Shown here: positions 26,901 to 63,746 of the stretch, piece after piece
How positions within the stretch are numbered: the first letter of the stretch is position 1
How the letters are laid out: each line of letters starts with the position of its first letter
Origin: Bacteroidales bacterium UBA6828
Lineage (GTDB): Bacteria > Bacteroidota > Bacteroidia > Bacteroidales > Paludibacteraceae
Direction of reading: 5' to 3'
NCBI GenBank assembly: GCA_002452095.1
Contig: DKEG01000026.1
Coordinates: 442 to 64,441, forward strand
DNA: 64,000 nucleotides
Notes under the pieces: model-generated
Seen by the model: the letters and a program-made list of their open reading frames with translations, nothing else
Database searches by the model: none
Told to the model about the DNA's origin: nothing
Program-made: the position numbers and the translations under genes

Positions 26901-28673
26901 CGTGCCGGCTTGAACTATCTCATCTTACGCTGTGAGCACCCGAGCGGCTACACCGATCTCTATCTCGATGACATCGCTGTGCGCCTTCTCCCCGACTGCC
27001 GCAAAGTACGAAATGTGGAGATTGCCGGTATCACACCCCATACTGCTACCCTGCAATGGACACCAGGCAACCGCGAAACGGCTTGGCAGGTGGTCGTAGC
27101 CGACGGCACGGATACCCTTCTCAACACCCGTACCGAACAGCCTTTAATAACGCTCCAACCGTTGCAATCGGGAACAAAATACACCCTTGATATTACAATC
27201 AAAGCCCTTTGCGACGGTGTCGAAGCCGCTGAGTACTACCACGCTGCGCATACCTTCCTTACCGAATGTGAACCCATTGCCGACTACCCGTGGAGCGAGA
27301 CTTTCGAGACCGTTCCTTCCGGCGATGACATCTTCGAAGTACCCGTATGCTGGAATATCCTCGGGGCAAACCAAGGCGGCAACACCTCTGTCTATGTTAC
27401 CGGTTCTATTGCTGCGCACGAGGGTACCAAGGGGCTTACGCTCAAGACCACTGACGCGTATGATGCGGCGGCTTTTGCTATCCTTCCGCAGGTGAAAACA
27501 GGAAATGAACTGGTATTCTGGTACAAGAGCAACTATGTCAACAAACCGATAGAAGTGGGTTATCTCACCGACCCCGCCGACTCCACCACGTGGCATCGTA
27601 TTGCCGAATATAGCGGTACCACCACTTGGACGCGCGTCATCCTTACGCTTGCGGCTTCCGCCGATGTGCTGCAGCCGTATTACGGTTTCCGCTATGCACC
27701 TAACTATACGTATTCCAGTCAGGTATATATCGACGATGTCGCCGTTTATGCCCCCTCACCGTGTCCTCTCCCTGCTAATATCCATATAGTGGATTCGCTG
27801 GCTACACAGCAGAGCGCAACCATGGCTTGGTCGGGCAGCGCAGACAATGGCTATACCGTTACCTTCTGCGGTGCAGACACCGTTACCCTGCAGACACCTG
27901 ACACCTTCTGTGTCTTGGACGGACTGCAACCTGCCACCCGCTATGCCTATACGGTCAAAGTGCTGGCACACTGTCTGGCAGGCGATGCATTCGATGTTCA
28001 GTCCGAACAACTGATGTTCTCCACTGCTTGCGCAACCGTCAGCGAGTTCCCGTGGGAAGTGGATTTTGAAAATTTCACTATAGGCAACGTCAACCAGTCC
28101 TGCTGGCTCAATGAGCATGTGTCGGGCTATGGCACGTATCTGTTCTCGGTTTATCAGTCCGCTTGGGGTGTCAATAATAATAACACCAATGTGCTCAAAC
28201 TGACCGACCAAAGCGGCACTACCTACACCCGTCTAGTACTGCCCGAAATGGATATCCCCGTCGCAGGAGGTTACGATTTCGGACTTTCTGTCTGGCGCCG
28301 TTCCATGCCCTATATTCCTGCCGAGGGAGTCTATATCCTTGCCGGAACGGATACATTGGCCTTCATTCCGCACAACTGTTCTACGGTCGGCACCAACATC
28401 CCCGCCGAAACGGAAAGCAATTGGTACACCTATACGTTCACTCTGCCCAATAGCGGCGTACAGCACATTGCCCTCCTCGGACGTAACGAGAACGGCAACG
28501 ACATCTATATGGACAATCTCTTTGTGCGCAGCAACGGCAAAGTGCCGACCTCTTTGCCTGCTACGGATACTTCCAACGCTGCGGCTCGGAAAATCATCCG
28601 CAACGGACAAGTCTATATCCTCCATCGCGGCAAAACCTACAACCTCCTCGGCGAACAGGTAAAAAATAAATAA
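23946..28673 (+). CDS. giant modular surface protein (5 FN3 units alternating with about 200-aa beta-sandwich-like modules), paralog 1
   Basis: 1575 aa with a signal peptide. It has five FN3-like units, each starting C-x(4-6)-L/I...T-x-x-S-A-x-L/I-x-W. The C-terminal tail is KIIRNGQVYILHRGKTYNLLGEQV. The N-terminal module aligns by eye with the 29495 gene. Confidence 0.85.
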   Translation: MRRNKLFLLLSAGLLAFGMSAQTTAVPYSTGFEDATDNAQWQLSEGNTVNRWYIGSAAPKDGTNALYISNDNGEHNAYSNRDYTTAFAYRTFQFDAWDYIVSFDWKATGESKFDLMQVLVLPADVSLAGANSNRVDLGTLSNFDVNTTADKMAQAGYIRLQSTNPSKAAYPWMFNQTASWQSESVEISIPTKGDYNLVFVWQNDGSSGDNPPAAVDNLSISRKACANLQDLNITGITASSATLSWAALEDVVGYDYIVAPATGTITDAQAQRTAATSVSISRLTANTTYIAYVRAVCEAGPGVWKQASFHTDCEALPIPYTENFDGSLPDGNYVMPYCWHRIAYNGKYPYVFVDDNNMNLAHSGSNFLYFYGGTTNSVQYAVLPSCVEKANRLMLSFYYKNKDAGPNYGKVIVGVMSDYTDVSTFVPLDTFPVTTVYTQTKTYLSNAPDTHNYIAIRYDDGERDGYVYIDDVELRYLPTCIPPQNLHIGNITTTSADLLWQAGKEETAWLVRYAVSGSTDTLTTRVSDTPALTVSGLTHSSLYSYWVSIQADCGDGDLSDAVETTLSFATECAPFQTKNDSILFNFEPYSTGQSFEDIPCWDTFKGTGNSSYRWKVQSGTAHSGSMYALISNQNDTTSSVVLVTPQTEIPDGSELSFYSRSGYPNSSTRHDRLVVYVNNQPALEGATRLGEVRNLTNTYRFTRFSLPVRGKQYILIEAYNYGSIYVDDILISPEPACLPPTNLRVYATNAHSTTITWNSGKNETQWLVSVDNHKDIYVEDELVEGTPFYTIEDLPSSTKDTVYVKVQSMCDESSLSKTAEGTLVFTTACEPADYAAAQAGDTLLVCGFEVSGDDESFVSGWDSVAHNCWTNRQIGYTGFYAPTTPIIWQVQTSNAHTGEQALVLPPNSSYQPITILALPGMVLAEGAELELSFWSKKGQAYYGKTLDSIEVYLNSAPSMAGATRIGTTGLIGETYTKYTFDPISARAGLNYLILRCEHPSGYTDLYLDDIAVRLLPDCRKVRNVEIAGITPHTATLQWTPGNRETAWQVVVADGTDTLLNTRTEQPLITLQPLQSGTKYTLDITIKALCDGVEAAEYYHAAHTFLTECEPIADYPWSETFETVPSGDDIFEVPVCWNILGANQGGNTSVYVTGSIAAHEGTKGLTLKTTDAYDAAAFAILPQVKTGNELVFWYKSNYVNKPIEVGYLTDPADSTTWHRIAEYSGTTTWTRVILTLAASADVLQPYYGFRYAPNYTYSSQVYIDDVAVYAPSPCPLPANIHIVDSLATQQSATMAWSGSADNGYTVTFCGADTVTLQTPDTFCVLDGLQPATRYAYTVKVLAHCLAGDAFDVQSEQLMFSTACATVSEFPWEVDFENFTIGNVNQSCWLNEHVSGYGTYLFSVYQSAWGVNNNNTNVLKLTDQSGTTYTRLVLPEMDIPVAGGYDFGLSVWRRSMPYIPAEGVYILAGTDTLAFIPHNCSTVGTNIPAETESNWYTYTFTLPNSGVQHIALLGRNENGNDIYMDNLFVRSNGKVPTSLPATDTSNAAARKIIRNGQVYILHRGKTYNLLGEQVKNK

Positions 28674-28792
28674 AGAAATGTACAGAATAAAGATAAAGAA
28701 GTGTACAGAATAAAGACAGAATAAAGATAAAGAAATGTACAGAATAAAGACAGAATAAAGACAGAATAAAGATAAAGAAATGTACAGAATAA
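28672..28792. repeat. 11-nt periodic tandem array (about 11 units; acagaataaag / ataaagaaatg)
   Basis: It starts at the stop codon of the 1575-aa gene. Nested pattern: a 22-nt unit followed by 0, 1, then 2 extra 11-mers. Confidence 0.9.
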
Positions 28793-28860: not shown

Positions 28861-28920
28861 CCTCTCACCCCCTCCTCTCACCCCCTTCTCTCACCCCCCT
28901 TCTCTCACCCCCCTCCTCTC
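28861..28920. repeat. C-rich tandem repeat (tctcaccccc-type, 13-14 nt units, about 4 copies)
   Basis: Read directly: cctctcaccccctcctctcacccccttctctcaccccccttctctcacccccctcctctc. Confidence 0.85.
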
Positions 28921-29031
28921 AAATACTCCTCTAAACACTCCGTTTGGTTTCCGTTTACCTTCGTGCTGATAAGCATAGGTGATTCTTAGGTGATTCACCT
29001 GTCAATCCCTTATGAGTACTGCCATTCCATC

Positions 29032-29198: not shown

Positions 29199-29304
29199 AT
29201 ATATACGTTTCAATATGTCTTTTTAATAACACTTAAATGTTATTTTGATGCCGATTGTATTATTTTTCCATTGTCCCGTTACTATTTTTGATGCGGTTGC
29301 CCTG
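29199..29304. repeat. conserved upstream element, copy B
   Basis: See copy A. It lies 190 nt upstream of the 1849-aa gene and is followed immediately by TAtaTTTG (29305-29312). Confidence 0.75.
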
Positions 29305-29494: not shown

Positions 29495-32400
29495 ATGAGG
29501 CAGAACAAACTTTTCCTGTTTTTGTTGTCGGTTTGCTTCTCTGTGGGAATAACAGCGCAGACGGCGGCTACGTCGCTGCCATACTCCACAGGCTTCGAGG
29601 ACGCAACGGACAATGCTTCCTGGCAGTTCGCCAATGCCACGGTTAACCAGTGGTGTATCGGCTCTGCCGCCAACCACGGCGGTACCAATGCGCTGTATAT
29701 CAGTAGCGATGGAGGTACATCTTGTAAATACAATAATTCAAAGAAAACCACCTCTTTCGCCTATCGTACTTTCCATTTTGATGCTTCGGATTATAGCATA
29801 TCCTTCGATTGGACGGGGCAGGGAGAATCTACGTATGATGGCGTACAAGTGCTGCTTATCCCGTCGAGTGTCTCATTGTCATCGTTGGGAGCAGATAACA
29901 ATAACATCACTTTAGGTTCCATCACCGGATTTACCATCAGTACTATGACTAGTACCATTACGCAAGCCGGTTACATACGCTTAGACTGCTCTCGTCCGTA
30001 TACCACAAACAAACAATGGATTTTCAGTGAACAGGATGAATGGGTAGCGCAAAGCCAAAAGGTTACCATATCCGCTGCAGGTGATTATAATCTGGTCTTT
30101 ATATTCCAATGTGATAACGGTACCGGCAGAACGGCTCCTGCTATTGATAATATCTTTATCAGCAAGATGGCTTGTGTAGAGATGGCGGCACCTGCTGTCT
30201 CCGATATTACCGCCAACTCGGCAAAAGTTACGTGGACTGCCTCTACATCAACGGATGTGCAGGGCTATGACTACATAGTTATTCCGGCGAGCGGTTCGAT
30301 AGACGAGAGCAAGGTACAGCATGCTGCAACACAGACGCAGGCTTCGGTTACGGGGTTGTCTGCCAATACGGATTATGTGGCGTATGTACGTGCGGTGTGC
30401 GAAGAGGGTGCCGGTGTATGGGCTCGTACGGCTTTCCATACCGACTGTGCGCCGATATCCGTTCCTTTTGCAGAAGGCTTTGAGGGGACTATGCCGGCAG
30501 GCGATAAGGTCATGCCCTATTGCTGGGAGGCTATTAAAAATAGCGGCTACCCGTATGTGTATGAACCCAGTTACTCTTCGGTTGCGCACAACGGTGAAAA
30601 GAGCCTGATCTTTATGGGCGGCAGCAGTGGCAGTGAGAATTACGCCATTCTGCCGACCTTCAGCGTTCCCGTCAATGAGTTGATGCTGTCGTTCTATTAC
30701 AAGAGCGGATATGTACAGGACGGATACGGAAAATTCATTGTGGGTGTGATGAGCAACCCTGCGGACAAAAACACGTTTGTTGCCATAGACACCCTGGAGC
30801 AGAAAGGCAGTTGGACATTGGCTAAAGTGTACCTGAACGATGCACCTGCCACCCACAACTATATTGCCATCAAATACGGCTGCGCTGACAAAGCGTCCGG
30901 CAACTCGTATATTGATGATATTACCGTGGATAATATGCCTGCTTGCGTGCCTGCCAAGAAAATCCGCATCAATGCCACTACGCAAACATCGGCTACCATT
31001 GCTTGGCAAGCAGGCAAAGACGAAACCGATTGGATTGTGAAGTATGTGGCTGCGGGTGAGACTGACACGGTTACGAGCAATGTCTCGGCTACTCCGTCGC
31101 TGACTATCAATGGGCTGAAACACAGTACTTCCTATTCCTATTATGTAGCCGTACAATCGGATTGCGGCAGCGAAAAGGCGGAGGTTACAAAAGCCACCTT
31201 GTCGTTTGCTACCGAATGTGCAGCGTTTACTGCGGTTCGAGACTCAATTCTGTTGGATTTTGAGACCTATCGCAACGGGCAGAGTTTCGCGGATATCCCC
31301 TGCTGGAATACCTTTGCCGGCAAGGGTACCACCACTACATGGAAAGTGGAGTCCGGTAGTGCCTCTTTGAGCAATCTGTATGATAACACCAACTATTCCG
31401 TTTTGGTAACACCCGAGTTGGAAATCCCGGGAAATTCGGAATTGAGTTTGTATGTAAAATCGAGTTATAGTTCGGCATATACAGCCAATGACAGTTTGAT
31501 TGTGTATATCAATGCAGACCCGACTTTGGAGGGGGCTACCCGTTTGGGCAAAATTACCGGTCTGACCTCGGACTACCAATTCTTCCGTTTCAGTCTGGAG
31601 CAATTCCGCGGCAACCACTATGTACTGATTGTGTCATACAACTATGGTGCGGTTTTGGTGGACAATATCCTTATTTCTCCGGAACCCGCCTGCCTGCCTC
31701 CTACCAAGTTGGTATTAGGCGACGTGGCTGCACGGCAAGCAACGTTCAGTTGGACTCCCGGCAAGAACGAGACCCGATGGCAGATAGTGGCAGTGAACAA
31801 CAGTCAGGCTCTCTATTTCGAGGAAACGGTGGATAATACACCCGCTTTCACAATGGAGGGACTTGAACCTGCCACTACCGATACATTCAGCATTACGATC
31901 ACCTCCGTATGCGACGATGTGCCGAGCGTGGAGACTCTGAAGGGAACACTGATCTTCACCACTATCTGCGAACCCGCAGACCATACCGCAGCCGCACCGG
32001 GCGACACCCTGCTCTTTACCTCGTTTGAGGCAGACGACAAGAACGAGGCGTTTGAGGATGGTCCATGGGATGATAATGCGCATATCTGCTGGACAAATAT
32101 CCGCCACGGCGGAGGCAACGGCAACGACTATCTGCGTTGGTCGGTTGGCAATGGTTCGAGATATGATACCTATTCGGGCGAACAAAGTCTGTCGCTGTCC
32201 GCTCCGAGCAGCAATACCCATCCGGGCATTCTCTTTGCTCTCCCCGCAATGACTTTCAGCGAGGGACAGGAACTGGGCTTGAGTTTCTGGGCTAAATGCG
32301 GTAGCAGTTTGGATTCCATTGTGGTTTATCTCAATAGTATGCCGTCTGTTGAGGGCGCAACGCATATCGGCAACACAGGTATTCTGACGAGCGATATGAC

Positions 32401-35044
32401 CTATTATGAGTTCGACCCGATCCGTACCACAGCAGGCGTAAACTATGTGATTGTCTATACCGAGCGTTCTGCCTCTTCGGAAATGTACTTGGACGACCTT
32501 ACATTGCGTCTCCTGCCCAACTGCCGCAAGGTGAAAGAGGCAGAGATTACCGACATTGCTACCACCGGTGCCAAACTGGCTTGGACACCCGCACACGAGG
32601 AGAATACATGGAATGTGGTAGTAAAGAACGGCAAAGATACCCTGCTCAATACGCAGGCAATCACCCCATCGGTACCATTATCGAACCTTACCCCCGCCAC
32701 CAAATACACATTCTCCGTTACTATCGCTGCCGTATGCGACGGCGTAGAGGCTGCCGAGAAATATGAAGGACAGTTGTCTTTCACCACCGGGTGCGAGGTT
32801 ATCACCGCTTTCCCGTGGAGCGAGGGCTTTGAGGCTATGCCTATGGGCAACAGCACCTCCGACGGTCCGCTCTGCTGGGACATCTTGGATGCCAACCAAG
32901 GCGGAAATGCATCGGTATTCGTGGAAAATAGTTATACCCCGTCTTCGTATGGTTATAATCCTCCCAAGGCTTACCATTCGGGCAGCAAAGGTCTGGTAAT
33001 GGCATTGACCTCCGGCAGCAACGCTGCGGCTTATGCTTTGCTTCCTGATATGGAGAATGTTGCCGGCAAGCAGTTGGTATTCTGGTACAAGTTGTACGAG
33101 ACAAACAAGAAACTGGAAGTGGGCTATCTGACCGATGTGGCTGACAAATCGACATGGAAGACCATTGCTTCCTATACCCCCAAAACGAATGATACATGGG
33201 AGGAGATCAAAGTTACTTTGGCTGTTCCCGAAGATGTAGTGAACCCGCATTTCGGTTTCCGCTTTGCTGCATCCTATTCGAATACAGCGGCTTATATTGA
33301 TGACATCAAGGTGCGCGAGGTACCTGTCTGCGATATGGCAACCGACTTGCATATCATTGACTCGCTCAGTACTGCCAATAGTGCTACCGTGGCTTGGTCG
33401 GGCTTGGCAGATGCCGGTTATACCGTTATCTTCCGCGGCAACGATACCATCACCAAGCAGGTAACCGATACCTTCTGCGTGTTGGACGGACTGACCGCAT
33501 CGCGTATCTACCACTATGAGGTAAGCGTTGTGGCACGCTGTGTCGCAGGCGAAGCCGTAGATACCCTTACTGCCAACCTGCAATGGCTGACCGACTGCGC
33601 CGGGGCTGTTACCACCTTCCCCTACAATATCGGTTTCGAGGAAGAAGATGGCTATGCATTCAAATCTTCCACAGTCTATACTATGCCGAAATGTGTTGTT
33701 TCTGAGGTTTGCGAGGGTGCTTCTAACTATCGTCTCATTCCTTCAAACAGCAATCCTAATGGTGTACATTCGGGTAGTCAGTACCTGTATATGTATGGTG
33801 CTTTTTCTTATAGTTACAAATATCGCAGTTCGTTTGCATTCCCGGAAATGGTTATTCCTGAGGCTAACGCATACGAATTGGCAATCTGGTCGCGTATCAA
33901 TAGTAGTAGTAAGCCGAATTATCCTGATAGCGTAGAGGTGTTCTACAATACGGAAAAGCAGTCATTGGACGGCGCAACGAAGATAGGTGCGTTCAAGCCG
34001 ACAACCACTTATACCCGGTACAAGTTCACGTTGCCTGCAGCAGGCAGTCAGTATGTGATTCTCAAGGCGTGGGCTAACCAAGGGCAGATCTTCTTCGACG
34101 ATGCTTCGTTCCGCAAGATCCCGAGTTGCTTCCCCGTAGAGAATGTACGTGTCAGTGCCGTAGGTTTGGATACAGCCCGTATTGCTTGGGATACAAAGAA
34201 CGATGGTGCAAGTTATCGTGTAAACATTATGCAAGGTACGAATGTGTTGTATGACGGTATGGTCAATGATACGGTGCTTGTACTCCGCAACTTGACCTCA
34301 TCTACTATGTACAACGACCTGAAAGTAACGATTGTAACCGTCTGCACAGATGGTGAAATATCTGCCGACATCTATACCGGCTCCATCTCTTTTGCCACCG
34401 AGTGTCGCACTATCATCAACTTCCCATGGGTGGAGGACTTCGAGAACTTTAATGAAGGCACTTTCAGCAATCCTTGCTGGCTCAATGAGCATATATCCGG
34501 CAATGGAAATAAATTGTTTGCTATTGCTCAGGGTAAGAGGGATGGCAAAGACGCGAAATTTGTAAAACTGCCAGTACAGACAGAAAACACGTACACGCGT
34601 CTGGTACTGCCTACAATGGATATACCGGTAGCAGGGGCGTATGATTTCTATTTGGATGTACATCGTCATTCGGGTTCCAACAAACCGACCGAGGGCGTAT
34701 ATATCATCGCCGGTACCGATACGCTTGCTTTCATTCCACGGCAGATAGCGGTAAATGGCATCAATGTTCCGATAGAAACTGCTGAAGCATGGTACACCTA
34801 CCATTTTACCATCCCGAATGCAGGTGTGCAGAACATCACCATCTTGGGACGTAGTGAGTGGGGGAGGGCCACCAATATGGATAACTTTATGGTTAAAGCC
34901 AACGGCAAAGTGCCTTCTGCATTGTCGGGTACGGGCGCTGATACCGACTTGGCAATCAAATTTATCCGCAACGGACAAGTGTATATTTTGCGCAACGGTA
35001 TCATCTACAATGCCCTCGGGCAGCGTGTCGAGGTGCTGAAATAA
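29495..35044 (+). CDS. giant modular surface protein (6 FN3 units), paralog 2
   Basis: 1849 aa. It is collinear with the 23946 gene module by module, with one extra module+FN3 unit (about nt 33597-34403). The C-terminal tail is KFIRNGQVYILRNGIIYNALGQRV. Confidence 0.85.
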   Translation: MRQNKLFLFLLSVCFSVGITAQTAATSLPYSTGFEDATDNASWQFANATVNQWCIGSAANHGGTNALYISSDGGTSCKYNNSKKTTSFAYRTFHFDASDYSISFDWTGQGESTYDGVQVLLIPSSVSLSSLGADNNNITLGSITGFTISTMTSTITQAGYIRLDCSRPYTTNKQWIFSEQDEWVAQSQKVTISAAGDYNLVFIFQCDNGTGRTAPAIDNIFISKMACVEMAAPAVSDITANSAKVTWTASTSTDVQGYDYIVIPASGSIDESKVQHAATQTQASVTGLSANTDYVAYVRAVCEEGAGVWARTAFHTDCAPISVPFAEGFEGTMPAGDKVMPYCWEAIKNSGYPYVYEPSYSSVAHNGEKSLIFMGGSSGSENYAILPTFSVPVNELMLSFYYKSGYVQDGYGKFIVGVMSNPADKNTFVAIDTLEQKGSWTLAKVYLNDAPATHNYIAIKYGCADKASGNSYIDDITVDNMPACVPAKKIRINATTQTSATIAWQAGKDETDWIVKYVAAGETDTVTSNVSATPSLTINGLKHSTSYSYYVAVQSDCGSEKAEVTKATLSFATECAAFTAVRDSILLDFETYRNGQSFADIPCWNTFAGKGTTTTWKVESGSASLSNLYDNTNYSVLVTPELEIPGNSELSLYVKSSYSSAYTANDSLIVYINADPTLEGATRLGKITGLTSDYQFFRFSLEQFRGNHYVLIVSYNYGAVLVDNILISPEPACLPPTKLVLGDVAARQATFSWTPGKNETRWQIVAVNNSQALYFEETVDNTPAFTMEGLEPATTDTFSITITSVCDDVPSVETLKGTLIFTTICEPADHTAAAPGDTLLFTSFEADDKNEAFEDGPWDDNAHICWTNIRHGGGNGNDYLRWSVGNGSRYDTYSGEQSLSLSAPSSNTHPGILFALPAMTFSEGQELGLSFWAKCGSSLDSIVVYLNSMPSVEGATHIGNTGILTSDMTYYEFDPIRTTAGVNYVIVYTERSASSEMYLDDLTLRLLPNCRKVKEAEITDIATTGAKLAWTPAHEENTWNVVVKNGKDTLLNTQAITPSVPLSNLTPATKYTFSVTIAAVCDGVEAAEKYEGQLSFTTGCEVITAFPWSEGFEAMPMGNSTSDGPLCWDILDANQGGNASVFVENSYTPSSYGYNPPKAYHSGSKGLVMALTSGSNAAAYALLPDMENVAGKQLVFWYKLYETNKKLEVGYLTDVADKSTWKTIASYTPKTNDTWEEIKVTLAVPEDVVNPHFGFRFAASYSNTAAYIDDIKVREVPVCDMATDLHIIDSLSTANSATVAWSGLADAGYTVIFRGNDTITKQVTDTFCVLDGLTASRIYHYEVSVVARCVAGEAVDTLTANLQWLTDCAGAVTTFPYNIGFEEEDGYAFKSSTVYTMPKCVVSEVCEGASNYRLIPSNSNPNGVHSGSQYLYMYGAFSYSYKYRSSFAFPEMVIPEANAYELAIWSRINSSSKPNYPDSVEVFYNTEKQSLDGATKIGAFKPTTTYTRYKFTLPAAGSQYVILKAWANQGQIFFDDASFRKIPSCFPVENVRVSAVGLDTARIAWDTKNDGASYRVNIMQGTNVLYDGMVNDTVLVLRNLTSSTMYNDLKVTIVTVCTDGEISADIYTGSISFATECRTIINFPWVEDFENFNEGTFSNPCWLNEHISGNGNKLFAIAQGKRDGKDAKFVKLPVQTENTYTRLVLPTMDIPVAGAYDFYLDVHRHSGSNKPTEGVYIIAGTDTLAFIPRQIAVNGINVPIETAEAWYTYHFTIPNAGVQNITILGRSEWGRATNMDNFMVKANGKVPSALSGTGADTDLAIKFIRNGQVYILRNGIIYNALGQRVEVLK

Positions 35045-45032: not shown

Positions 45033-45072
45033 AATGGGGTTGCTTGACACATTCAGGCAACCCCATTTTTTT
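45033..45072. terminator. terminator hairpin between convergent dcp and res
   Basis: AATGGGGTTGC-N13-GCAACCCCATT followed by T7. It overlaps the res stop codon. Confidence 0.7.
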
Positions 45073-47719
45073 AGAGCAATCGGAGTATATCTATAAACTC
45101 CGAATAGGTGTACGCCCCATCTGCTTTCTTATTTTGATAGACGAGGAAATAGCGGAATTGGCTCCCCGCTTTGTTTGCCCACATATTGCCGAGCAGAATC
45201 TTGTCGGTGGCATCGAGGTGGTCGCCTTTGGTCTCAAGCAATACCGTCTTTCCGCGACGGGTGCGGATGATAAAGTCGGGGTAGTGGTTGATAAATCCGT
45301 TGATACAGAAGTCTTTGCGCTCTCGGTTGCGCGTCCACCATTCTACATTCTCCAAGTTCGCCACCTCATTGATGACCTGCTTCTCAAACCCGTTCACATC
45401 CTCTTCGCGTGTGTGCAGCATCTTGGTGATACTGTCTTGCGGCGCGGACAGCACTATCTCGTCGGGGATAGCGAACGCGGGGCGGACAAAGATTTTGTCG
45501 GTGTCTAATCCGCGGCGGAACTGCTGCTGTTTGTAGCGGTTTTCCAATGCCAATATATCCTGCTTCAGCACTTGCGTGTATTCGTTGATGTGCAGGAGAA
45601 ACTGCTCAAAGTCCGCCTCACGGAACTCAATAAACCGCTGTTCTATATAGGTTTGCACGTCTTTGGGCGTGAGGGGTATCATCTTGCCCATCAGTGCCGC
45701 CACCTCGCTGCTGCAGCGGGTGCGCTTGCTGTCTATATTGTCGGCATTGCGTATGTAGTTCAGTATCAAGTCGTAAGCCGAACCTTTGATTTTCTCGTAG
45801 CGGGGTGTGTGGTCGTCCGTTTGGTCGGAAATATCCACTTTGTAGAGGCTCGTTTCTGTCGCTTCGCACGAGAAAGGCGGTGTCTCCTGTGCGGAAAGGC
45901 GGAAACCTTGCAGCAGGTCTTCGCCCTCCAGCAGGTGTTCGCTTGCCTCGCCGAAGATATTACCGGGCGAAGTCTCGTCCCTGATGAAGAACTGCGGCAG
46001 GCAAACGGCTTTTGCACTATCGGCATAGAGCGATTGGATAGTCGCCCGCTTGACGCTTTCGGCTAACTCTACCGGCACTTGTTCGCCCGTCTGCTGTTGC
46101 ATTTGTTGTTCCATATCCGTGGCTTGTTGGTGTGCAGTGGCGAGTATCTGTGCCACTTCTTTGTTGTCTTCTGTTGTGTTTTGCGGTTGATATGCTATGT
46201 CGGTTCGTCCGTCGAAACGGATAGCGGTGGTGTCGATGTCATCGGCTGTGGTCGTCTGCGGGGGTGTCTCTTCGGGGAAGAGCATCTGCAAGGTAGGGGT
46301 GGTTGGTGCCGGTGCAGCGGTCTCCGCCATATCAAGGGAACGGTAGTCGCGGGCGGAGAAACCCGCATGGTTGAGTCCTGCCACCACGCTTTGCAACGTG
46401 TCTTGGAACTTTGCCGAGGCGGTCAGCACATAGGACAGGTTCAGCACATCGGCATTGTTGCGCCGTGCATACGGCAGACGCAGCACACGCCCCACTATCT
46501 GCTCCACGTCCACGCTCGACGACTTGTCCGCCAGCGATGCCAAGATGTAGGCAAACGGGCAGTCCCAGCCCTCTTTGAGGGCGTTGATGGTGATGATATA
46601 GCGCACGGGGCAGTCGGGCGACATGAGGTCAATACCTGCCAGTTCGTTGATGTCGGCGGTCTTGATCTTGATTTGCTCTTCGGGGATATGGAGTGCCATC
46701 AGTTTCTCGCGTATCTTGCCGAAGGTCTCACGTTCCTCGTCTTTGTTCTTCGGTTGGGCTTGAAACAGCACTATCGGGCGTATGTAGCGCGTCGGGTCTT
46801 GGCGGGCGGTATGCTCGAGGGAGCGTTGCAGGTGCAGTGCCGAGTCAATGACCTGGTTTTTGTTGGTATGGTTATAGACAATCACGGGCAGTTTGACCAT
46901 ATTGTTGCGCTTGAGTTCCAGCGCGTCGGTGAAGCAGATGATGTTGCTGTTCTGCTTGGGCGTGGCGGTGAGGTCAAGCACGATGGATGGTGCCATGTCG
47001 TTGAGCATATCCTCCGAGAGCGGGGTGCTGGCGTTGTGGCTCTCGTCCACTATCACCACGGGGTGCAGCGCCCGCAGGACGGACATCAGTTGTATCTCGC
47101 CCGCCTCGTCCGCCACGGCACCGGGCAGACCGGCAAACGACTGCAGGTAGCCGTTGTCCTGATAGACCTTGCGCCCGTCTTTGTTGGTGGCGCGGAACGA
47201 ATCGAACGTCGCCACCATAATGCACAGGTTCTCCCGCACGTTGGAGAGCGAGAACCCTTGTCCGAGCAACGCCTGCTGCTTGTCGAAGACCAGGACACGG
47301 CTGTTGAAATCGGTGTCGATACGTTGCCGGTACGGGTGGCGCGGGTTGATGAGGTGGCGCAGTGTCTGCTCCAAGATAGTGGTGGACGGTACCAGCCACA
47401 CCACCATTTGGCAGGCGGTGTGTATGTGGTTGAACAGCACCCGCAATGCCGCCGAGGCAAGCAGGGTCTTGCCGCCGCCTGTCGGCACTTTGCAGCAGAT
47501 ATGCGGGGCGTGGCGGACATTGTCCTTGTAGGGTTCGATGGCGGTGCCGCGGCAAGGCTCGTAGGCGGGACGGTTGGTGCGCCAGAAGGTGCGGAACGCC
47601 TCCACATAGTTGTGGTGAGGGTCTTGCTCGATAAGGGTGAGATAACGCTCTATCTCGTCCAAGTTGTGCTGTTGGTATGATTTCAGTTCCATGTGTCTCC
47701 TTTCTCCATTAAAGACCAT
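45071..47719 (-). CDS. res: type III restriction enzyme, Res subunit (helicase + PD-ExK nuclease)
   Basis: Walker A KVPTGGGKT, VIVDESHN (DEAH-like) and LDLTATPK. The C-terminal YPDFII...VLLETKG is a PD-(D/E)xK motif. It lies directly downstream of mod. An alternative start is M10 at 47692. Confidence 0.85.
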   Translation of the reverse strand: MVFNGERRHMELKSYQQHNLDEIERYLTLIEQDPHHNYVEAFRTFWRTNRPAYEPCRGTAIEPYKDNVRHAPHICCKVPTGGGKTLLASAALRVLFNHIHTACQMVVWLVPSTTILEQTLRHLINPRHPYRQRIDTDFNSRVLVFDKQQALLGQGFSLSNVRENLCIMVATFDSFRATNKDGRKVYQDNGYLQSFAGLPGAVADEAGEIQLMSVLRALHPVVIVDESHNASTPLSEDMLNDMAPSIVLDLTATPKQNSNIICFTDALELKRNNMVKLPVIVYNHTNKNQVIDSALHLQRSLEHTARQDPTRYIRPIVLFQAQPKNKDEERETFGKIREKLMALHIPEEQIKIKTADINELAGIDLMSPDCPVRYIITINALKEGWDCPFAYILASLADKSSSVDVEQIVGRVLRLPYARRNNADVLNLSYVLTASAKFQDTLQSVVAGLNHAGFSARDYRSLDMAETAAPAPTTPTLQMLFPEETPPQTTTADDIDTTAIRFDGRTDIAYQPQNTTEDNKEVAQILATAHQQATDMEQQMQQQTGEQVPVELAESVKRATIQSLYADSAKAVCLPQFFIRDETSPGNIFGEASEHLLEGEDLLQGFRLSAQETPPFSCEATETSLYKVDISDQTDDHTPRYEKIKGSAYDLILNYIRNADNIDSKRTRCSSEVAALMGKMIPLTPKDVQTYIEQRFIEFREADFEQFLLHINEYTQVLKQDILALENRYKQQQFRRGLDTDKIFVRPAFAIPDEIVLSAPQDSITKMLHTREEDVNGFEKQVINEVANLENVEWWTRNRERKDFCINGFINHYPDFIIRTRRGKTVLLETKGDHLDATDKILLGNMWANKAGSQFRYFLVYQNKKADGAYTYSEFIDILRLL

Positions 47720-47791: not shown

Positions 47792-49489
47792 CTACACTTT
47801 CTTGATGTCGCGGGGAATTTGCTTGAAGGTGATGTGGTGGGTAAGCATAAAGTCGCGGCTCAGGCGGCAGCAGTCGGCATAGATGATATACTGCTCGGCT
47901 TGGTCGGCTGGGGTGAACGTGTTGAGAAAAGCCCTGTCCAATACCGTCTCCTCGCCACGTTTGTAATAGAAATAGTAGTTGGTGCCGTCCTTGCGCCCTA
48001 ACAAGTAAGGGTGCGGGGTAGGGTGTGTACTAACGACGCGGGACGCGTCGTCTCCATAATCTATAGGACTGTGATACGGCGTATTCGTTTCGCTGTACCA
48101 GATATATCGCCGTATCTGCTCGGTGTCGGCGTGGTCGTTGAGGAGACCGGTCTGCGGGTCATAGATGGTGTCGCCTAACTCATAGAACGCAAACGAACCG
48201 CCCGTGCCCTCTACGGCTTTGCTGCCCTCACCGTAGCCGTCTATCACACGGCGCACCCGCTCGGCAGTAATCGTCTCCGCATAGTCGCACATCTCCACCA
48301 AAATAAACCGCCTGTGCCCGCCGTCCTGCTTGTTAAGATTCAACACCGCATGCGCAGTAGTACCCGAACCCGCAAAAGAATCAAGGATGAGGGCATCTTT
48401 GTGCGTGGCGATTTGTAGTATCTGTGAGATATATTCAACAGGTTTAGGGAAATCAAAGATATTCTTATCTCCAAATATTGAAATTATTTCTTTTGTTGCA
48501 GTTTGATTATGCCCAACCTCATCGCTTAACCATAAAGTATTCGGTGTACGCCCACTTTGAACACTACACAAAAATCTTTTCTTACGAGGAAATGAATTAC
48601 CTGTGTCACCAAACCAAATTTGATTAGTAGCAATTAAAGCCCGCATATTTTCTTCACTATATACCCAATGTTTGCCCAATGGGACATCAAATTCTTTTCC
48701 TGTTTTGGGGCTTATGACAATATAATGTCCATTACTTCTTTCTCCAGCAGCGACTAAATCCCCAGATTGCCATGGTCCCCTAATATCATTATCCCTATTA
48801 GTGTAACGCCCATTCATTTCTTTAGTTCGTGGTAGTAAATGCAGAGTGAAATTAGGTTTGTTCTTTGTATAGACCAAGGCATATTCATGATTTTCCGAGA
48901 AGTATTTGGCATCATTTTTAGTACTATGTATCTTTTGCCATACAATGGTACATAAATGATTACTTTTTCCGAATATCTCGTCGCAGATTAGTTTGAGGTT
49001 GGCTTGCTCGTTGTCGTCTATAGAGATGAAGATGGCACCCGTGGGAGAGAGCAGTTTTTGGAGGAGGATAAGGCGGGGGTACATCATACAGAGCCACTTG
49101 TCGTGGCGGGTGAGGTCTTCGGCTTCTTTGCCCACCACCGCACCTAACCATTTGCGGATATGCGGGTCGTTTACGTTGTCGTTGTACACCCAGCCCTCAT
49201 TGCCCGTATTATACGGCGGGTCGATGTAGATGCAATCCACGCGGTTCTCATACTCAGGCAGCAACGCTTTGAGTGCCTCGAGGTTGTCGCCGTGGATAAT
49301 TTTGTTGACCTCCCCAACCCCTCCAAGGGAGGGGCTATCGGTATTGGCACTGACGACCGCGGGCGAGGCGCCCGCGTCCCCGGCAACCTCACACTTGCCA
49401 TACGTGTATTGCTGTTTCAAGACGCGGTAGGGAACGTCGTTGTGGTGGGTCTGTACTTTCTCTTTTCCTATCCAGTGGAGGGTGGGCAT
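47792..49489 (-). CDS. mod: type III DNA methyltransferase, Mod subunit (beta-class N6/N4 MTase)
   Basis: IYIDPPYNTGNEGW (motif IV) comes before ILDSFAGSGTTAHAV (motif I). A variable AT-rich middle segment lies between them. The gene sits upstream of res. Confidence 0.9.
   Translation of the reverse strand: MPTLHWIGKEKVQTHHNDVPYRVLKQQYTYGKCEVAGDAGASPAVVSANTDSPSLGGVGEVNKIIHGDNLEALKALLPEYENRVDCIYIDPPYNTGNEGWVYNDNVNDPHIRKWLGAVVGKEAEDLTRHDKWLCMMYPRLILLQKLLSPTGAIFISIDDNEQANLKLICDEIFGKSNHLCTIVWQKIHSTKNDAKYFSENHEYALVYTKNKPNFTLHLLPRTKEMNGRYTNRDNDIRGPWQSGDLVAAGERSNGHYIVISPKTGKEFDVPLGKHWVYSEENMRALIATNQIWFGDTGNSFPRKKRFLCSVQSGRTPNTLWLSDEVGHNQTATKEIISIFGDKNIFDFPKPVEYISQILQIATHKDALILDSFAGSGTTAHAVLNLNKQDGGHRRFILVEMCDYAETITAERVRRVIDGYGEGSKAVEGTGGSFAFYELGDTIYDPQTGLLNDHADTEQIRRYIWYSETNTPYHSPIDYGDDASRVVSTHPTPHPYLLGRKDGTNYYFYYKRGEETVLDRAFLNTFTPADQAEQYIIYADCCRLSRDFMLTHHITFKQIPRDIKKV
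49307..49381. repeat. composite of three hairpin elements inserted in frame near the mod N-terminus
   Basis: GACCTCCCCAACCCCTCC-aag-GGAGGGG (49307-49336), a diverged CGGT..GGCAC hairpin (49338-49356), and the reverse complement of GGGGACGCGGGCGCCTCGCCCGCGG (49357-49381). Together they encode AGDAGASPAVVSANTDSPSLGGVGEV. Confidence 0.75.
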
Positions 49490-49575
49490 AGCAGTTGTTT
49501 GTCAGGTGGTCGCCCTTGCCCTCGGCGACCGGTACGGATACAAAAAAACGTGGGCAACTATACCTATCGAACTTG

Positions 49576-49753
49576 CTACTGCGGTCGTAGGAAACCTTTG
49601 CACTAAGTTCGGTATATAGCGTCCACGTGCATATATACACGCCATACACGACAAGGGAAGATCCCATTGTCGTGCGGCGGAGGTATATACACTCCGTAAA
49701 CGTCCACTGATACCGCCCTCTGAGTGCTTGTGAAATTTCCTACGTTTCAGTAG
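49576..49753 (-). other. inverted-repeat-bounded element A (18/19-nt arms, 141-nt interior) upstream of mod
   Basis: Arms are CTACTGCGGTCGTAGGAAA (49576-49594) and TTTCCTACGTTTCAGTAG (49736-49753). The element is homologous to 62807-62976 in the opposite orientation. Confidence 0.7.
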
Positions 49754-49984
49754 CCAGATTGCGACGAGTAAACGTCTTTTTCTCTTATGTCGGTTGCGCG
49801 GTGTGCTTGCTATGGCAGAATCGGCAACACGTCTGCAAAGGTAAACATTTTCCGCGAGATACGCAAATAAATTATGTATTGCCACATACCGCAGGTCTGT
49901 GTTCTCCTCAAAAATACTGTTTTTATGCAGTATATGCGACAAATATAGTGCATAAAGTGTATAAAAGCACTGCATAAAGGGTAA

Positions 49985-54136: not shown

Positions 54137-54212
54137 CAAAACCAACAAAACCTGTCTTGCGGCGCAACACGCGCCGCGCTTGTCGTCAAATATATTCAAA
54201 AATTAACCAAAT

Positions 54213-59945: not shown

Positions 59946-60090
59946 AAATAACTAATGTCCGTTCCATATAACTTGTAAATATAGAATTTATGGTTAATTT
60001 GTGGCAATACGGCGTAGCCGTCCGTTTATATAAACACCCTGCCGGCGCGTGTTGTACCGCAAGAAAGGTTTTGTAAGTTTTGGTTTGTTT

Positions 60091-61573: not shown

Positions 61574-61608
61574 TATTGTTTCTTAGCAGGGCGATACCAT
61601 CGCCCGCT
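61574..61608 (+). repeat. 35-nt perfect direct repeat, copy 1 (contains the GGGCGAT-acc-ATCGCCC hairpin)
   Basis: TATTGTTTCTTAGCAGGGCGATACCATCGCCCGCT is identical at 61875-61909. Confidence 0.9.
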
Positions 61609-61628
61609 CCCCCCTTCCCCCTTCTCTC

Positions 61629-61670
61629 TAATCCCTAATCCCTAATCCCTAATCTCTAATCTCTAACCTC
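61629..61670. repeat. heptamer array TAATCCC x3, TAATCTC x2, TAACCTC
   Basis: Read directly. Confidence 0.9.
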
Positions 61671-61700
61671 CCCGCATCTGTCTCGGAACAACTCCATAAG

Positions 61701-61755
61701 ATAACCAGAACATAACCAGAACATAAGCAGAACATAACCGAAACATAACCGATAG
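61701..61755. repeat. 11-mer array x5 (ATAACCAGAAC type)
   Basis: Read directly. Confidence 0.9.
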
Positions 61756-61810
61756 ATATGAATACTTTCGTAATACTTTGCAGCACACCATCCCGTACCC
61801 ATATCGTCCC

Positions 61811-61873
61811 CTAATCCCTCCCCTCTAATCTCTAATCTCTAATCTCTAATCCCTTCTCTCTAACCCCTAATTA
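61811..61873. repeat. heptamer array x9 (CTAATCT / CTAATCC type)
   Basis: Read directly. Confidence 0.9.
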
Positions 61874-61874
61874 G

Positions 61875-61909
61875 TATTGTTTCTTAGCAGGGCGATACCA
61901 TCGCCCGCT
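61875..61909 (+). repeat. 35-nt perfect direct repeat, copy 2
   Basis: Identical to 61574-61608. Confidence 0.9.
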
Positions 61910-62015
61910 TTATGTTTTTCCAAAAACATACATAAAAACGCGGCTTTGCCATACCTGTTGATACCATCATATTGAATATAAATGCCTTATGTTTGCACAT
62001 ATCAAATGTTTATCG

Positions 62016-62023
62016 TAACTTTG
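62016..62023 (+). promoter_or_regulatory. candidate -7 box TAacTTTG for the antitoxin-toxin pair
   Basis: Matches TAnnTTTG, 22 nt before the ATG at 62045. Confidence 0.4.
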
Positions 62024-62044
62024 CAGCGATAAAAAACGAACAAT

Positions 62045-62305
62045 ATGAGTACAGCGGCATTACAAAACATTTTATCCGGCATTCAGGCGCACAACCTGAC
62101 GGCTGCCAATATGCGTTGGTTGGCGGAGCGGTTGTTGGATGCAGCCGATGCGGAGGATAATATCCGTCCCTATACGACAGAGGAATTGGAAGCACGTATT
62201 GCCAAATCAGAGAATGATATCAGGGCGCATAGAACGTATTCTGCGGATGAGGCGCACCATATAATGCAACGAACTATCGGTTCTGCACAACAGAAATGCG
62301 AGTAA
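62045..62305 (+). CDS. putative antitoxin of a RelE/ParE-type pair
   Basis: 86 aa, helical. It overlaps the downstream toxin-like ORF by 10 nt. The call rests on position and size only. Confidence 0.45.
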   Translation: MSTAALQNILSGIQAHNLTAANMRWLAERLLDAADAEDNIRPYTTEELEARIAKSENDIRAHRTYSADEAHHIMQRTIGSAQQKCE

Positions 62306-62602
62306 TTTGGACAGAACAAGCGTTGTCTGCTTGGCAAGAGACGGCAATGTACATATTGGCAAACTTTGGCAAGCCGTCGCAGATGGAATTCTATCAAAAG
62401 ACACTGTCTTGGGAGAAGGCTATCTCGCAAATGCCGAACATTGGCAAAGTAGAACCTCTATTATCCCATTTGCCAAAGATATATCGAAGCGTAGTGGTGT
62501 CACAACAAAATGGTGTATTCGGTGGCGGATGATAGCATTACGATACATGACTTTTGGGACACACGCCGTGAACCAAAGTCTCTCGTCAAAGGCACAGAAT
62601 AA
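62296..62602 (+). pseudogene. RelE/ParE-family toxin interrupted by a +1 frameshift at an A4 run
   Basis: Frame 1 (62296-about 62509) reads MRVIWTEQALSAWQETAMYI...LPKIYRSVVVSQQ. The +1 frame from 62510 reads MVYSVADDSITIHDFWDTRREPKSLVKGTE-stop (62600-62602), a typical ParE/RelE C-terminus. Confidence 0.55.
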
Positions 62603-62806
62603 ATCAGATCCTTTCGTTTATAAAGGCTTGGATTGAGATACGTCCCCGCTGACGGACGATAAACATAGTCAGCAAATGCAAAGACCCGCGCGGTGGGCTT
62701 TCGGTGACGGACACAGCGGTGTCCCGAGAAAGCGGTTGGGTGGGCTTTGTGGACATAATAGTCGCGCAAACGCGCGACAAAGCGTTTACTAACGCTTGCA
62801 AATCGA

Positions 62807-62976
62807 CTATTGAAACGTAGGAAATTTCAAGAATGTCATCCGATAGCAAGACATTAGTAGATGCTCATGGGTGTATCCACACTGGCGTGTACTTGTATAG
62901 GTATGCGCTTGTACGATATACACGCGTGGGTTTCTGCAAGTTTTTTCGATGACATGGTTTCCTACGACCTCAATAG
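62807..62976 (+). other. inverted-repeat-bounded element B (18/19-nt arms, 133-nt interior) upstream of the 63114 gene
   Basis: Arms are CTATTGAAACGTAGGAAA (62807-62824) and TTTCCTACGACCTCAATAG (62958-62976). It is homologous to 49576-49753. Confidence 0.7.
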
Positions 62977-63113
62977 CGGATTTACTAACAGAAGTCCGCG
63001 TTTTTTTGTGTGCCTATACGTGATGTGTATATACCCAACAGGTATTGTGGACAGATGCCTGAGAAAACTGTTATTTACGCGAGTGCCCATAGCAATGTAA
63101 AAAACTAATTTGT

Positions 63114-63746
63114 ATGACTGAACAACAAAGACATCAGTATCAGACCATTATCCATGCTCGGAATTTTCACTACGAGCAGTTTACACGATGGTCAGGGTAT
63201 TTCTATGTGGTTATCGGTGTATTGTTTATCGGGTATTGCTTGATTGTGCAGACTTCTGCAGCAAATACAGCAGATAGCCAAGTATTAGGTTGGGTCGTTC
63301 TATGTATCGGCTACATGGCAAGTGTGGCAAACTATCTGTCTGTCAACGGGTATGTCTATTGGTGGAACCATTGGAATAGCCTTTTGAAGGATTTCGAGAA
63401 AAAAGCATGCACGGAAGAAGAAACGGTGTACAATGCTTTGGCGGAAAAGCCCAAATCGGATAAACAATGTGGTCTGCTCAAAGGTCGTAATATCTCACCT
63501 GAAAAGGTTACGATTGTTTTGGCAGGAATGATGATTTTAGGATGGAGCATCCTGATTGGCTTCCGTGCAAGCAGTTGGATGGTAAACCTGCTCGGCATAG
63601 ATGATTGTTGCCATCCGTATGTACCGTGGGTTACTGCGATAGTACTATGGATAATCTTTCCGCTATTGTCCCTATTGTCTTATTGCAAATCGATGCATAT
63701 AGGCAAGAGTAAACATACAGATTCAAACGTAAAAAAATCAAAATAA
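63114..63746 (+). CDS. four-TM membrane protein, function unknown
   Basis: 210-aa ORF with four hydrophobic helices and a basic C-terminal tail, in a lower-GC region. Confidence 0.5.
   Translation: MTEQQRHQYQTIIHARNFHYEQFTRWSGYFYVVIGVLFIGYCLIVQTSAANTADSQVLGWVVLCIGYMASVANYLSVNGYVYWWNHWNSLLKDFEKKACTEEETVYNALAEKPKSDKQCGLLKGRNISPEKVTIVLAGMMILGWSILIGFRASSWMVNLLGIDDCCHPYVPWVTAIVLWIIFPLLSLLSYCKSMHIGKSKHTDSNVKKSK

Follow-up and report, generated by a model that had tools for sequence, protein, structure and literature searches.

How Bacteroides interacts with its host and which phages can infect it depends on its surface structures, capsules and restriction systems, and these are known to be controlled by DNA inversions and by specialised NusG paralogues. 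In processive antitermination, cis-acting folded RNAs such as EAR of the Bacillus eps operons and put of phage HK022 lie in or before long polysaccharide or accessory operons. This study analyzed a stretch of 64,000 nucleotides from Bacteroidales bacterium UBA6828 (Paludibacteraceae; GenBank assembly GCA_002452095.1, contig DKEG01000026.1, positions 442 to 64,441 of the forward strand; hereafter the window), in which an element of about 250 nt with inverted-repeat arms stands immediately upstream of a type III mod gene (copy A) and occurs again 13 kb away (copy B). We assign a probability of roughly 55% to the complete reading that this element is a transcribed, structured 5' leader acting in cis, in which a basal helix and a small hairpin named P1 compete with a terminator. 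On sequence evidence, the element is a member of a widespread, conserved family of leader RNAs in gut and rumen Bacteroidales that is absent from Rfam and previously uncatalogued, and it is best classed with the cis-regulatory structured leaders, probably gating the transcription of accessory genes. Gene classes like those under inversion and NusG control in Bacteroides would thus share a leader RNA of about 250 nt in other gut and rumen Bacteroidales, namely Paludibacteraceae, Prevotellaceae such as Hallella, and uncultured lineages from rumen, horse and human gut.

Among described systems, terminator/antiterminator leaders, which include riboswitch platforms and protein-dependent attenuators, would come closest to the element in their working, and they resemble it in being structured same-strand 5' leaders between promoter and gene with covarying helices, in carrying a hairpin and a U-run (terminator-like in the present element) just before the gene, and in an alternative pairing, here predicted, that would exclude the terminator. 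However, the conserved part of the present element is a long rod with small internal loops and not a multi-helix junction pocket, it has no match in Rfam 15, and its downstream genes have no metabolic function in common that could point to a ligand. The gene set of this leader resembles the regulons of two specialised NusG paralogues, that of RfaH and ops (JUMPstart) in enterobacteria and that of UpxY and opsX in Bacteroides capsule operons, in which a leader signal precedes polysaccharide, fimbrial and acquired envelope operons; UpxY belongs to the same phylum as the window. In the UpxY/opsX logic only a modified polymerase passes; opsX is a short pause site that combines a small pause hairpin with a hairpin in the non-template DNA, and upxY and upxZ open the operon (PMC11685472). 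In contrast, the present element is about 250 nt long, its gene set also includes restriction-modification, and no NusG-like gene was found among the first downstream genes or the upstream neighbours of the leaders.

Some copies of the leader lie inside operons, behind same-strand open reading frames (ORFs), as EAR and put do, but neither sequence nor structure is similar to those RNAs (no Rfam match). Bacteroidales invertons share with the element the inverted repeats around 130-160 bp and the same gene classes (PMC7641763). Unlike invertons, however, the element has no interior promoter and no flipped copies, its interior is a hairpin with strand-specific G·U pairing, and its promoter lies outside the arms. 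Set against the definitions of an inverton, of the Rfam families, of a repeat of the miniature inverted-repeat transposable element (MITE) type and of a UpxY leader, the element did not qualify as any of them.

Anatomy of the two copies

Copy A and the genes that it precedes lie on the minus strand. The mod gene (47792-49489, ATG at 49489; Pfam N6_N4_Mtase, E = 2e-41; PADLOC MTase_III, E = 2e-200) is followed by the type III res gene (45071-47719; Pfam ResIII, E = 9e-15). Upstream of the leader, a promoter was read from the sequence at 49836-49867, with a -33 element TTTG (49867-49864), a 20-nt spacer and a -7 element TAccTTTG (49843-49836), and transcription is predicted to start at about 49830. 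The 5' leader segment (49777-49829) comprises a hairpin (about 49829-49792) whose sequence varies among orthologues while its self-complementarity, judged by eye, is kept, then the motif GACATA (49791-49786), which occupies the same leader position in most family copies, and an A-rich run (49785-49777). The P1 hairpin, GACG-UUUACU-CGUC (49763-49776), was likewise read from the sequence and has a homologous hairpin in most family members.

After P1 comes the rod (49575-49754), a long imperfect hairpin with a predicted RNA fold of -108 kcal/mol (z = -7.3), a covariance-model score of 140.9 bits (E = 1e-37) and covariation. The inverted arms, CTACTGAAACGTAGGAAA (49753-49736) and TTTCCTACGACCGCAGTAG (49594-49576), are 18 and 19 nt long and have 141 nt between them (49735-49595). 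Within the rod, the hypervariable closing stem HV1 pairs GCUACUG (49754-49748) with CAGUAGC (49581-49575), and the conserved helix S3, adjoined by an internal loop, pairs CGUAGGAAA (49744-49736) with UUUCCUACG (49594-49586); further inward lie a second variable helix, HV2, conserved inner helices and an apical hairpin. The 3' hairpin region (49574-49549) and the U7 tract that follows (49548-49542), which falls within the T-run CGTTTTTTTGT (49550-49540), are terminator-like and imperfect in copy A. Between the U-run and the mod start codon, 18 nt before the ATG, stands a GC-rich hairpin, GGUCGCC...GGCGACC (49508-49530), which is lineage-specific, being kept in the orthologous loci L005, L018, L129 and L134 and lacking in other subfamilies. 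The initial annotation of this DNA had described P1, the two arms with their 141-nt interior, the T-run and the GC-rich hairpin, and each of these was found in the sequence at the place that it gave.

These four orthologues each precede the same mod gene, and the promoter of copy A is kept in all of them while the DNA farther upstream differs; in L018 and L129 the mod cassette, its promoter and its leader occupy unrelated genomic contexts. The Mod protein of the window and its UBA7569 orthologue (L018, 4823-6604) have their N- and C-terminal regions in common and differ in their central regions (565 versus 593 aa), which looks like a target-recognition domain swapped between alleles. About 80-140 nt upstream of the copy A promoter, a perfect 10-bp inverted repeat, TTTATGCAGT / ACTGCATAAA, occupies 49922-49931 and 49969-49978 with 37 nt between its halves; it could be an operator or the terminator of a divergent neighbour.

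Copy B (62781-63007, plus strand) has the opposite genomic orientation and, as had been reported for the second copy, points into a downstream gene (63114-63746, plus strand), which encodes an 8xMP-family membrane protein (Pfam PF24838, E = 6e-19). Its P1 hairpin is AGCGUU-UACU-AACGCU (62781-62796), and its rod (62807-62975) has a predicted fold of -91.5 kcal/mol (z = -6.7) and scores 200.5 bits on the plus strand versus 27.7 bits antisense. HV1 pairs CUAUUG (62807-62812) with CAAUAG (62970-62975), S3 pairs CGUAGGAAA (62816-62824) with UUUCCUACG (62957-62965) with an interior hairpin inside, and the arms enclose 133 nt. The intrinsic terminator (62976-63007) consists of GCGGAUUU-ACUAACAG-AAGUCCGC (62976-62999), a G and U7 (63001-63007), and it was flagged by the terminator scan (8 pairs, loop of 8, T-run). 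The core sequence of copy B is that of locus L116.

Comparison of the two copies gave a column identity of 73%. The arm variants are matched within each copy (CTACTG/CAGTAG in copy A, CTATTG/CAATAG in copy B), as had been pointed out earlier, and a shared 19-mer, TGAAACGTAGGAAATTTCA, occurs exactly twice in the window versus 0.00 expected. Relative to dinucleotide shuffles, the sense folds have z = -7.3 (copy A) and -6.7 (copy B) and the antisense folds -3.4 and -4.1. Searching the window with nhmmer and the covariance model returned exactly copies A and B and no further copy. Together, the shared 19-mer, the folds and these searches show that the arrangement is not a chance one.

No promoter box lies near copy B, which is preceded by two small overlapping same-strand ORFs (62045-62305 and 62296-62532) and may be internal to their transcript. 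These ORFs have a TAacTTTG box of their own at 62016-62023 (region 62016-62636); a toxin-antitoxin identity was considered for them and rejected, neither having a Pfam match. A structured segment at 62620-62778 (plus strand) leads up to copy B and contains CCCGCGCGG and GGUUGGGUGGG, GACATA (62752-62757) and a hairpin GUCGCGC-AAAC-GCGCGAC (62761-62778); clear homologues of these upstream modules stand upstream of the related copies L010, L014 and L021. The part at 62620-62760 (GCAAAGACCCGCGCGG...CUUUCGGUGACGGACACAGCGGUGUCCCGAGAAAG...GGUUGGGUGGGCUUUGUGGACAUA) constitutes a second conserved, apparently structured module and has no Rfam match. GACATA seems to punctuate the succession of leader modules, and L001, L024 and L027 each have it twice.

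Alignment of the family revealed a common order of parts. The promoter is followed by variable leader modules that often end in GACATA, then by P1 (typically GGCGUU-UACU-AACGCU) and a conserved linker, UUGUUAUCGA or a variant of it. HV1, a closing stem of 6-8 bp with a copy-specific sequence, leads to an internal loop and to S3, inside which HV2 forms the second copy-specific helix. In the conserved inner helices, ...GUAGAUGYCCAUGG GUGUAU... pairs with ...AUAUACAC GCGUGG UUUCU..., and an apical hairpin of variable length follows. On the 3' side of the closing stem come a short hairpin, then (G/A)CG and the U-run. The rod measures about 170-200 nt, with about 70 bp of near-continuous duplex; a short family member, L009 (76-304), has about 228 nt in all. 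The inverted arms are HV1 together with S3, that is, the base of the rod, and conservation reaches beyond them to P1, the linker and the terminator.

The leader family and its structure

The family was collected with an arm-only pattern, AAACGTAGGAAA-N(120-150)-TTTCCTACGA, which matches either orientation of the interior. The pattern matched 32 loci in species-representative genomes, at least 118 metagenome loci and 3 IMG/VR contigs; with the window included and locus L060 dropped as a likely chance match, the set holds at least 151 instances, with 57 unique cores among the matches listed. Carriers are Paludibacteraceae metagenome-assembled genomes, the isolate Hallella absiana YH-C38 (at least 3 loci), uncultured Prevotellaceae and 'Porphyromonadaceae', Candidatus Colivivens and Colicola from the horse, and UBA rumen Bacteroidales. 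Copies per genome number four in one metagenome-assembled genome, three in Hallella absiana and two in the window.

The covariance model R1 matched all 57 unique copies over their full length with 44-234 bits; the antisense strand gave about 17-33 bits, because the arms are palindromic. Scanning the whole window against Rfam 15 (4227 families) returned nothing at gathering thresholds, and permissive scans of both copies (to E = 10) returned chance-level matches only (E >= 0.9). The arm sequences retrieved nothing relevant from the full-text literature, nor from the searchable supplements of a human-microbiome catalogue of structured RNAs. The model is ready for annotating the leader regulon in thousands of metagenome-assembled genomes.

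A divergent, GC-richer member (44 bits) was found directly after a Mob_Pre relaxase gene in L033, L152 (5564-5782) and the IMG/VR loci L151-L153. The element that carries it also has a tyrosine integrase and a helix-turn-helix gene, and the leader has its own promoter box 55 nt upstream. Its identical sequence recurs in at least about 84-86 metagenome loci or contigs, those among the matches listed coming mostly from human-gut assemblies. This carrier looks like a widespread mobilisable element, and a search of the plasmid database with the copy that it carries gave no match.

The structure was then evaluated across copies. RNAalifold on 33 copies yielded 29 consensus pairs, and each variable pair of the closing stem was double-compensated in 5-16 of the 33 sequences, with at most 4 broken or gapped. 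In the 57-copy alignment, standard pairs occupied 96.6% of cells, compared with 83.1% in shuffles (0 of 500 reached the observed value) and 40-53% when partners were slid by 1-3 columns; 215 cells were changed on both sides versus 63.5 in shuffles, and nine of the ten closing-helix pairs had changes on both sides. This alignment was fitted to the structure and its sequences are related, so that these pairing figures are supportive and are not formal probabilities. An alignment-free comparison, in which closing-stem partners were swapped among 36 unique versions, gave -8.3 kcal/mol for cognate and -1.7 kcal/mol for swapped partners (p = 3e-24); for HV2 the values were -9.4 and -4.8 kcal/mol (p = 1e-18). 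The homologous copies collected with the arm pattern thus do show compensatory changes in the closing stem, a point that the initial annotation had raised.

In 53 of 57 copies the sense strand gave the more stable fold of the two strands, with a mean advantage of 14.2 kcal/mol. In an inverted repeat maintained at the DNA level without strand selection, G·U pairs and A·C mismatches should be similarly frequent. The sense folds contained 534 G·U pairs and 19 single A·C mismatches, and therefore one fixed strand and orientation is under selection. On these grounds a conserved sense-strand RNA structure is highly probable. The arms had originally been offered either as recombination sites or as the closing stem of a structured RNA of roughly 200 nt; the covariation, the G·U asymmetry, the upstream promoter, the T-run and the co-orientation with the next gene give the latter strong support.

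Candidate conditional termination and its alternatives

A sense-strand TAnnTTTG box was present upstream of 38 of the 49 copies with enough flanking sequence, mostly 81-141 nt before the core. After the core, a T-rich run follows at 33-42 nt in 51 of 57 copies, and in 30 of 57 it is preceded by a perfect GC-containing stem. An ORF start was called within 600 nt after the U-run in 41 copies; in 36 of these the next ORF shares the strand of the element, in 5 it is opposed, and the distance from U-run to ATG has a median of 78 nt. A promoter box between element and gene was seen in only 13 of 57 copies, and copy A is without one. Each copy in the window is co-oriented with its own gene despite their opposite genomic orientations.

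The downstream genes encode type III Mod in three separate lineages (window/L018, L003/L025 and L029), Mfa-like fimbrillins in all three Hallella copies, and further surface proteins, namely BspA-type LRR/dockerin proteins and an outer-membrane beta-barrel protein. Polysaccharide and envelope functions comprise WbqC, a DegT aminotransferase, UDP-galactopyranose mutase, a GT2 glycosyltransferase, MBOAT and a sulfatase-family membrane protein, and candidate defence genes are LmuA-like and PDC-S05-like. These genes are diverse yet thematically coherent, with outward-facing accessory functions. The element had first been viewed as a regulatory device on a restriction-modification system; its position before type III mod agrees with that view, but other leaders precede fimbrillin, BspA-like, polysaccharide, membrane-protein and candidate defence genes, and the restriction to one kind of system falls away.

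A leader peptide was also considered and rejected: the ATG in CCAUGGGUGUAU opens a 35-codon frame in L009, the frame through S3 differs in copy B, and the ATG is absent from copy A and several other copies. Reading the aligned family sequences revealed no conserved leader-peptide frame.

In the proposed mechanism, transcription would start at an ordinary Bacteroidetes promoter 40-100 nt upstream and would produce in order P1, the long rod, and a short hairpin with a U-run a few tens of nucleotides before the same-strand start codon. The 3' strand of P1 and the linker could pair with the 5' half of the terminator hairpin, thereby lengthening the rod, and this pairing would exclude both P1 and the terminator. 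With P1 and the terminator formed, transcription would stop; with the extended rod formed, it would read through into the gene. S3, its internal loop and the conserved inner rod would serve as a docking platform for an effector that sets the balance, and a protein or transcription complex is a likelier effector than a small metabolite because the shape is rod-like. Taken by itself, the claim that the leader works by conditional termination has about an even chance of being right.

Several results bear on the competing pairings. An example of linker pairing with the terminator 5' half is GCUUGUU / GAUAAGC in the Paludibacteraceae type, and in Hallella-type leaders it is the closing stem that continues into the GGG of the GGGCA/UGCCC terminator stem; the competition recurs in subfamilies of unrelated sequence. 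Swapping linker and terminator 5' halves in silico gave -6.4 kcal/mol for cognate and -3.9 kcal/mol for swapped combinations (p = 6e-7). The two states have similar predicted stability, and copies differ widely in the ensemble probability of their terminator hairpin, which takes values from about 0 up to about 1, exceeding 0.5 in 16 of 54 copies and falling below 0.2 in 23 of 54. Such a layout is the classic one of transcription attenuators, and attenuation is adopted here as the working model. If the leader is a conditional terminator, it would constitute a new regulon-wide RNA control point for phage-facing functions, and the cultured carrier Hallella absiana YH-C38, with at least 3 copies, makes the hypothesis directly testable.

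A number of observations weigh against the proposal. The terminator hairpins are weak alone (mean -4.1 kcal/mol), and that of copy A is weak, is separated from its U-run by CCACG and was not flagged by the terminator scan. The antiterminator pairing is simply a prolonged rod, and it is supported by a swap test made in silico on related sequences rather than by covariation statistics of its own. The invariance of S3 is produced in part by the search pattern, which required those arms. About 11 of the 49 copies have no recognisable promoter within 450 nt and stand behind same-strand ORFs, so that part of the family lies within operons. The U-run could serve translation initiation and not termination, since the ATG adjoins it directly in several polysaccharide loci. 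As for a partner protein, be it a recombinase, a NusG/UpxY protein or an RNA-binding protein, no family recurs among the upstream neighbours, and the Pfam functions of the neighbours are unrelated.

An action after transcription accounts for some of these observations and is unlikely, although it survives best among the alternatives. The rod would then be a site for RNase III or other processing, an mRNA stabiliser, or a control on ribosome access at the U-rich region or start codon, with no role in termination. Its near-continuous duplex of about 70 bp is a plausible substrate for a double-strand-specific RNase, the terminator hairpins are weak, the ATG adjoins the U-run in several loci, and in copy A and some others the U-run is a possible pairing partner of the A-rich 5' segment. 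However, this A-rich/U-run helix shows no copy-specific complementarity, the hairpin and U-run are kept at a fixed distance across sequence-divergent subfamilies, and rod extension competes with the terminator stem even in subfamilies whose sequences are unrelated. An outermost helix, in which GACAUA and the A-rich run would pair with the U-run and UAUGUC, was convincing in some copies but was discarded, its cognate pairs being no better than swapped ones.

Slightly less plausible is an independent small RNA gene. Its product would be an RNA of about 230-330 nt with its 3' end at the U-run and a function in trans, for example that of a protein sponge or one like that of 6S RNA, the downstream gene being a bystander with its own promoter. 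The upstream promoter and terminator-like 3' end fit such a gene, and 5 of 41 copies face a convergent ORF. The L033 type, abundant in the human gut, has a second TAnnTTTG about 135 nt after the element and its next ORF about 390 nt away, and it looks like the family member most similar to an independent small RNA gene. Against this stand the same-strand bias of 36 versus 5 with a median spacing of only 78 nt, the 44 of 57 copies, copy A among them, in which no promoter box separates the element from its gene, and the start codons that adjoin the U-run in several loci. Moreover, genomes carry many divergent paralogues of the leader, whereas one or two copies are typical for housekeeping small RNAs.

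A selfish repeat of the MITE, repetitive extragenic palindrome (REP) or Correia type, with an incidental hairpin and an upstream position due to insertion preference, is improbable. The multiple copies within genomes, the inverted arms, the member on a mobilisable element and the movement of the mod cassette with its leader into different contexts would agree with it. But the arms are not the ends of the conserved unit, since P1, the linker and the terminator outside them are also conserved, and copies within a genome are diverged and not near-identical (73% column identity between A and B). The orientation to the next gene is fixed (36 versus 5), strand-specific G·U pairing is kept, and the architecture is conserved in several Bacteroidales families.

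Very improbable, too, is the other possibility initially raised, an invertible DNA switch in which the arms are recombinase sites and the 141-nt interior flips to turn the downstream gene on and off. Surface, polysaccharide and restriction-modification classes are phase-variable in Bacteroides (PMC7641763). Inverted arms around about 130-160 bp also have the typical size of Bacteroidales invertons. The arm core AAACGTA partly resembles what we take to be the Mpi site, whose consensus could not be confirmed in the literature searched. However, with P1 and the terminator as reference, the interior faced the same way in all of the at least 151 instances, which are assembled contigs retrieved with an orientation-blind pattern, and about 86 contigs of one locus from many different metagenome assemblies had an identical sequence. 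The TAnnTTTG box was absent from all 57 unique interiors on either strand, in agreement with the earlier failure to see one in copy A, and the promoters lie outside the arms, mostly 81-141 nt upstream. Flipping would change little, the interior being a near-palindromic hairpin in its own right, and the predominance of G·U over A·C shows selection on one strand. No recombinase was found among the window ORFs scanned, as the initial annotation had also observed; this is a weak point, since invertases can act in trans.

A hairpin acting as single-stranded DNA, as a single-strand origin, priming site or attC-like recombination site, would agree with the divergent member placed directly after a Mob_Pre relaxase on an integrase-bearing mobilisable element, with strand-specific G·T pairing and with a position before diverse accessory genes that recalls gene cassettes, but it is likewise very improbable, because most copies are chromosomal among housekeeping genes, single and not arrayed, with a promoter before and a T-run after them, and because the two window copies, opposite and 13 kb apart, are each co-oriented with a gene, which fits transcription and not replication or transfer polarity.

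Copy-specific helices and other features of the window

Within the transcribed leader proposed here, HV1 and HV2 evolve differently from the remainder. In copies whose inner rod and apex are 80-95% identical, P1 94-97% and terminator 91-94%, HV1 is only 60-71% and HV2 48-61% identical, and both are always complementary. At the orthologous mod locus, the window, L134 and L018 carry GGCTACTG/CAGTAGC in one helix and ..GCACT../..AGTGC.. in the other; L005, L041 and L129 carry GATTACTG/CAGTAAT and ..ATCTC../..GAGAT... Outside these helices, identity among these loci is 93-100%, both in the leader and at the beginning of mod. Because overall divergence is so low, point mutation is excluded as the source of the replacement; gene conversion from paralogues, template switching in the quasi-palindrome and selection for copy-specific helices are possible sources. 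Such whole-helix replacement at orthologous loci is an unusual evolutionary pattern for a bacterial RNA.

L005 (Bacteroidales UBA6340) contains a second leader copy at 5679-5928 (plus strand), 1.6 kb upstream of the mod-associated copy. This second copy faces a convergent DUF6427 gene, towards whose 3' end it points. It has the same apex as the first copy but another HV1 and HV2, and its S3 carries a compensated change from G-C to U-A; the invariance of S3 elsewhere is therefore partly due to the search pattern.

Antisense pairing of the variable helix strands with the start of their own gene was examined as an explanation and rejected, cognate and swapped combinations pairing equally well (p = 0.13-0.89). 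We consider it a long shot that HV1, HV2 and possibly the hairpin after the promoter are copy-specific 'address' helices, which would be read by a factor recognising helix sequence or would be processed into copy-specific short RNAs, in either case coordinating surface and defence loci or making them mutually exclusive. If true, such helices would do through RNA what the UpxY/UpxZ hierarchy and inverton phase variation do in Bacteroides.

The window is otherwise an ordinary Bacteroidales chromosome, with isoleucyl- and glutamyl-tRNA synthetases, a Mur ligase, an RND efflux pump, guanylate kinase and large fn3-repeat proteins. Two giant fn3-repeat proteins encoded side by side (1575 and 1849 aa) are paralogues; many stretches that are 70-80% identical recur between them at a spacing of about 5.55 kb. 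Directly after the stop codon of the 1575-aa fn3 gene, tandem repeats of ACAGAATAAAG(A)... occupy 28648-28792 with a spacing that alternates between 23 and 11 nt. A 72-nt direct repeat, 76% identical, is found at 5-76 and 29201-29272, upstream of two large ORF regions (23946-28673 and 29495-35044).

Further repeats lie in the part of the window that holds the two leaders. A 40-nt inverted repeat, 88% complementary, at 54137-54176 and 60043-60082 surrounds 5.9 kb with the RND pump gene and genes for an ECF-type sigma factor, a hydrolase and a methyltransferase-like membrane protein. At 61574-61911, a 35-nt direct repeat with the hairpin GGGCGAT-ACC-ATCGCCC occurs at 61574-61608 and 61875-61909. 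Each of its two copies adjoins a tandem array of the heptamer CTAATCC/CTAATCT (61604-61678 and 61801-61875), and similar C/T-rich repeats of 14 nt are present at 28868-28929.

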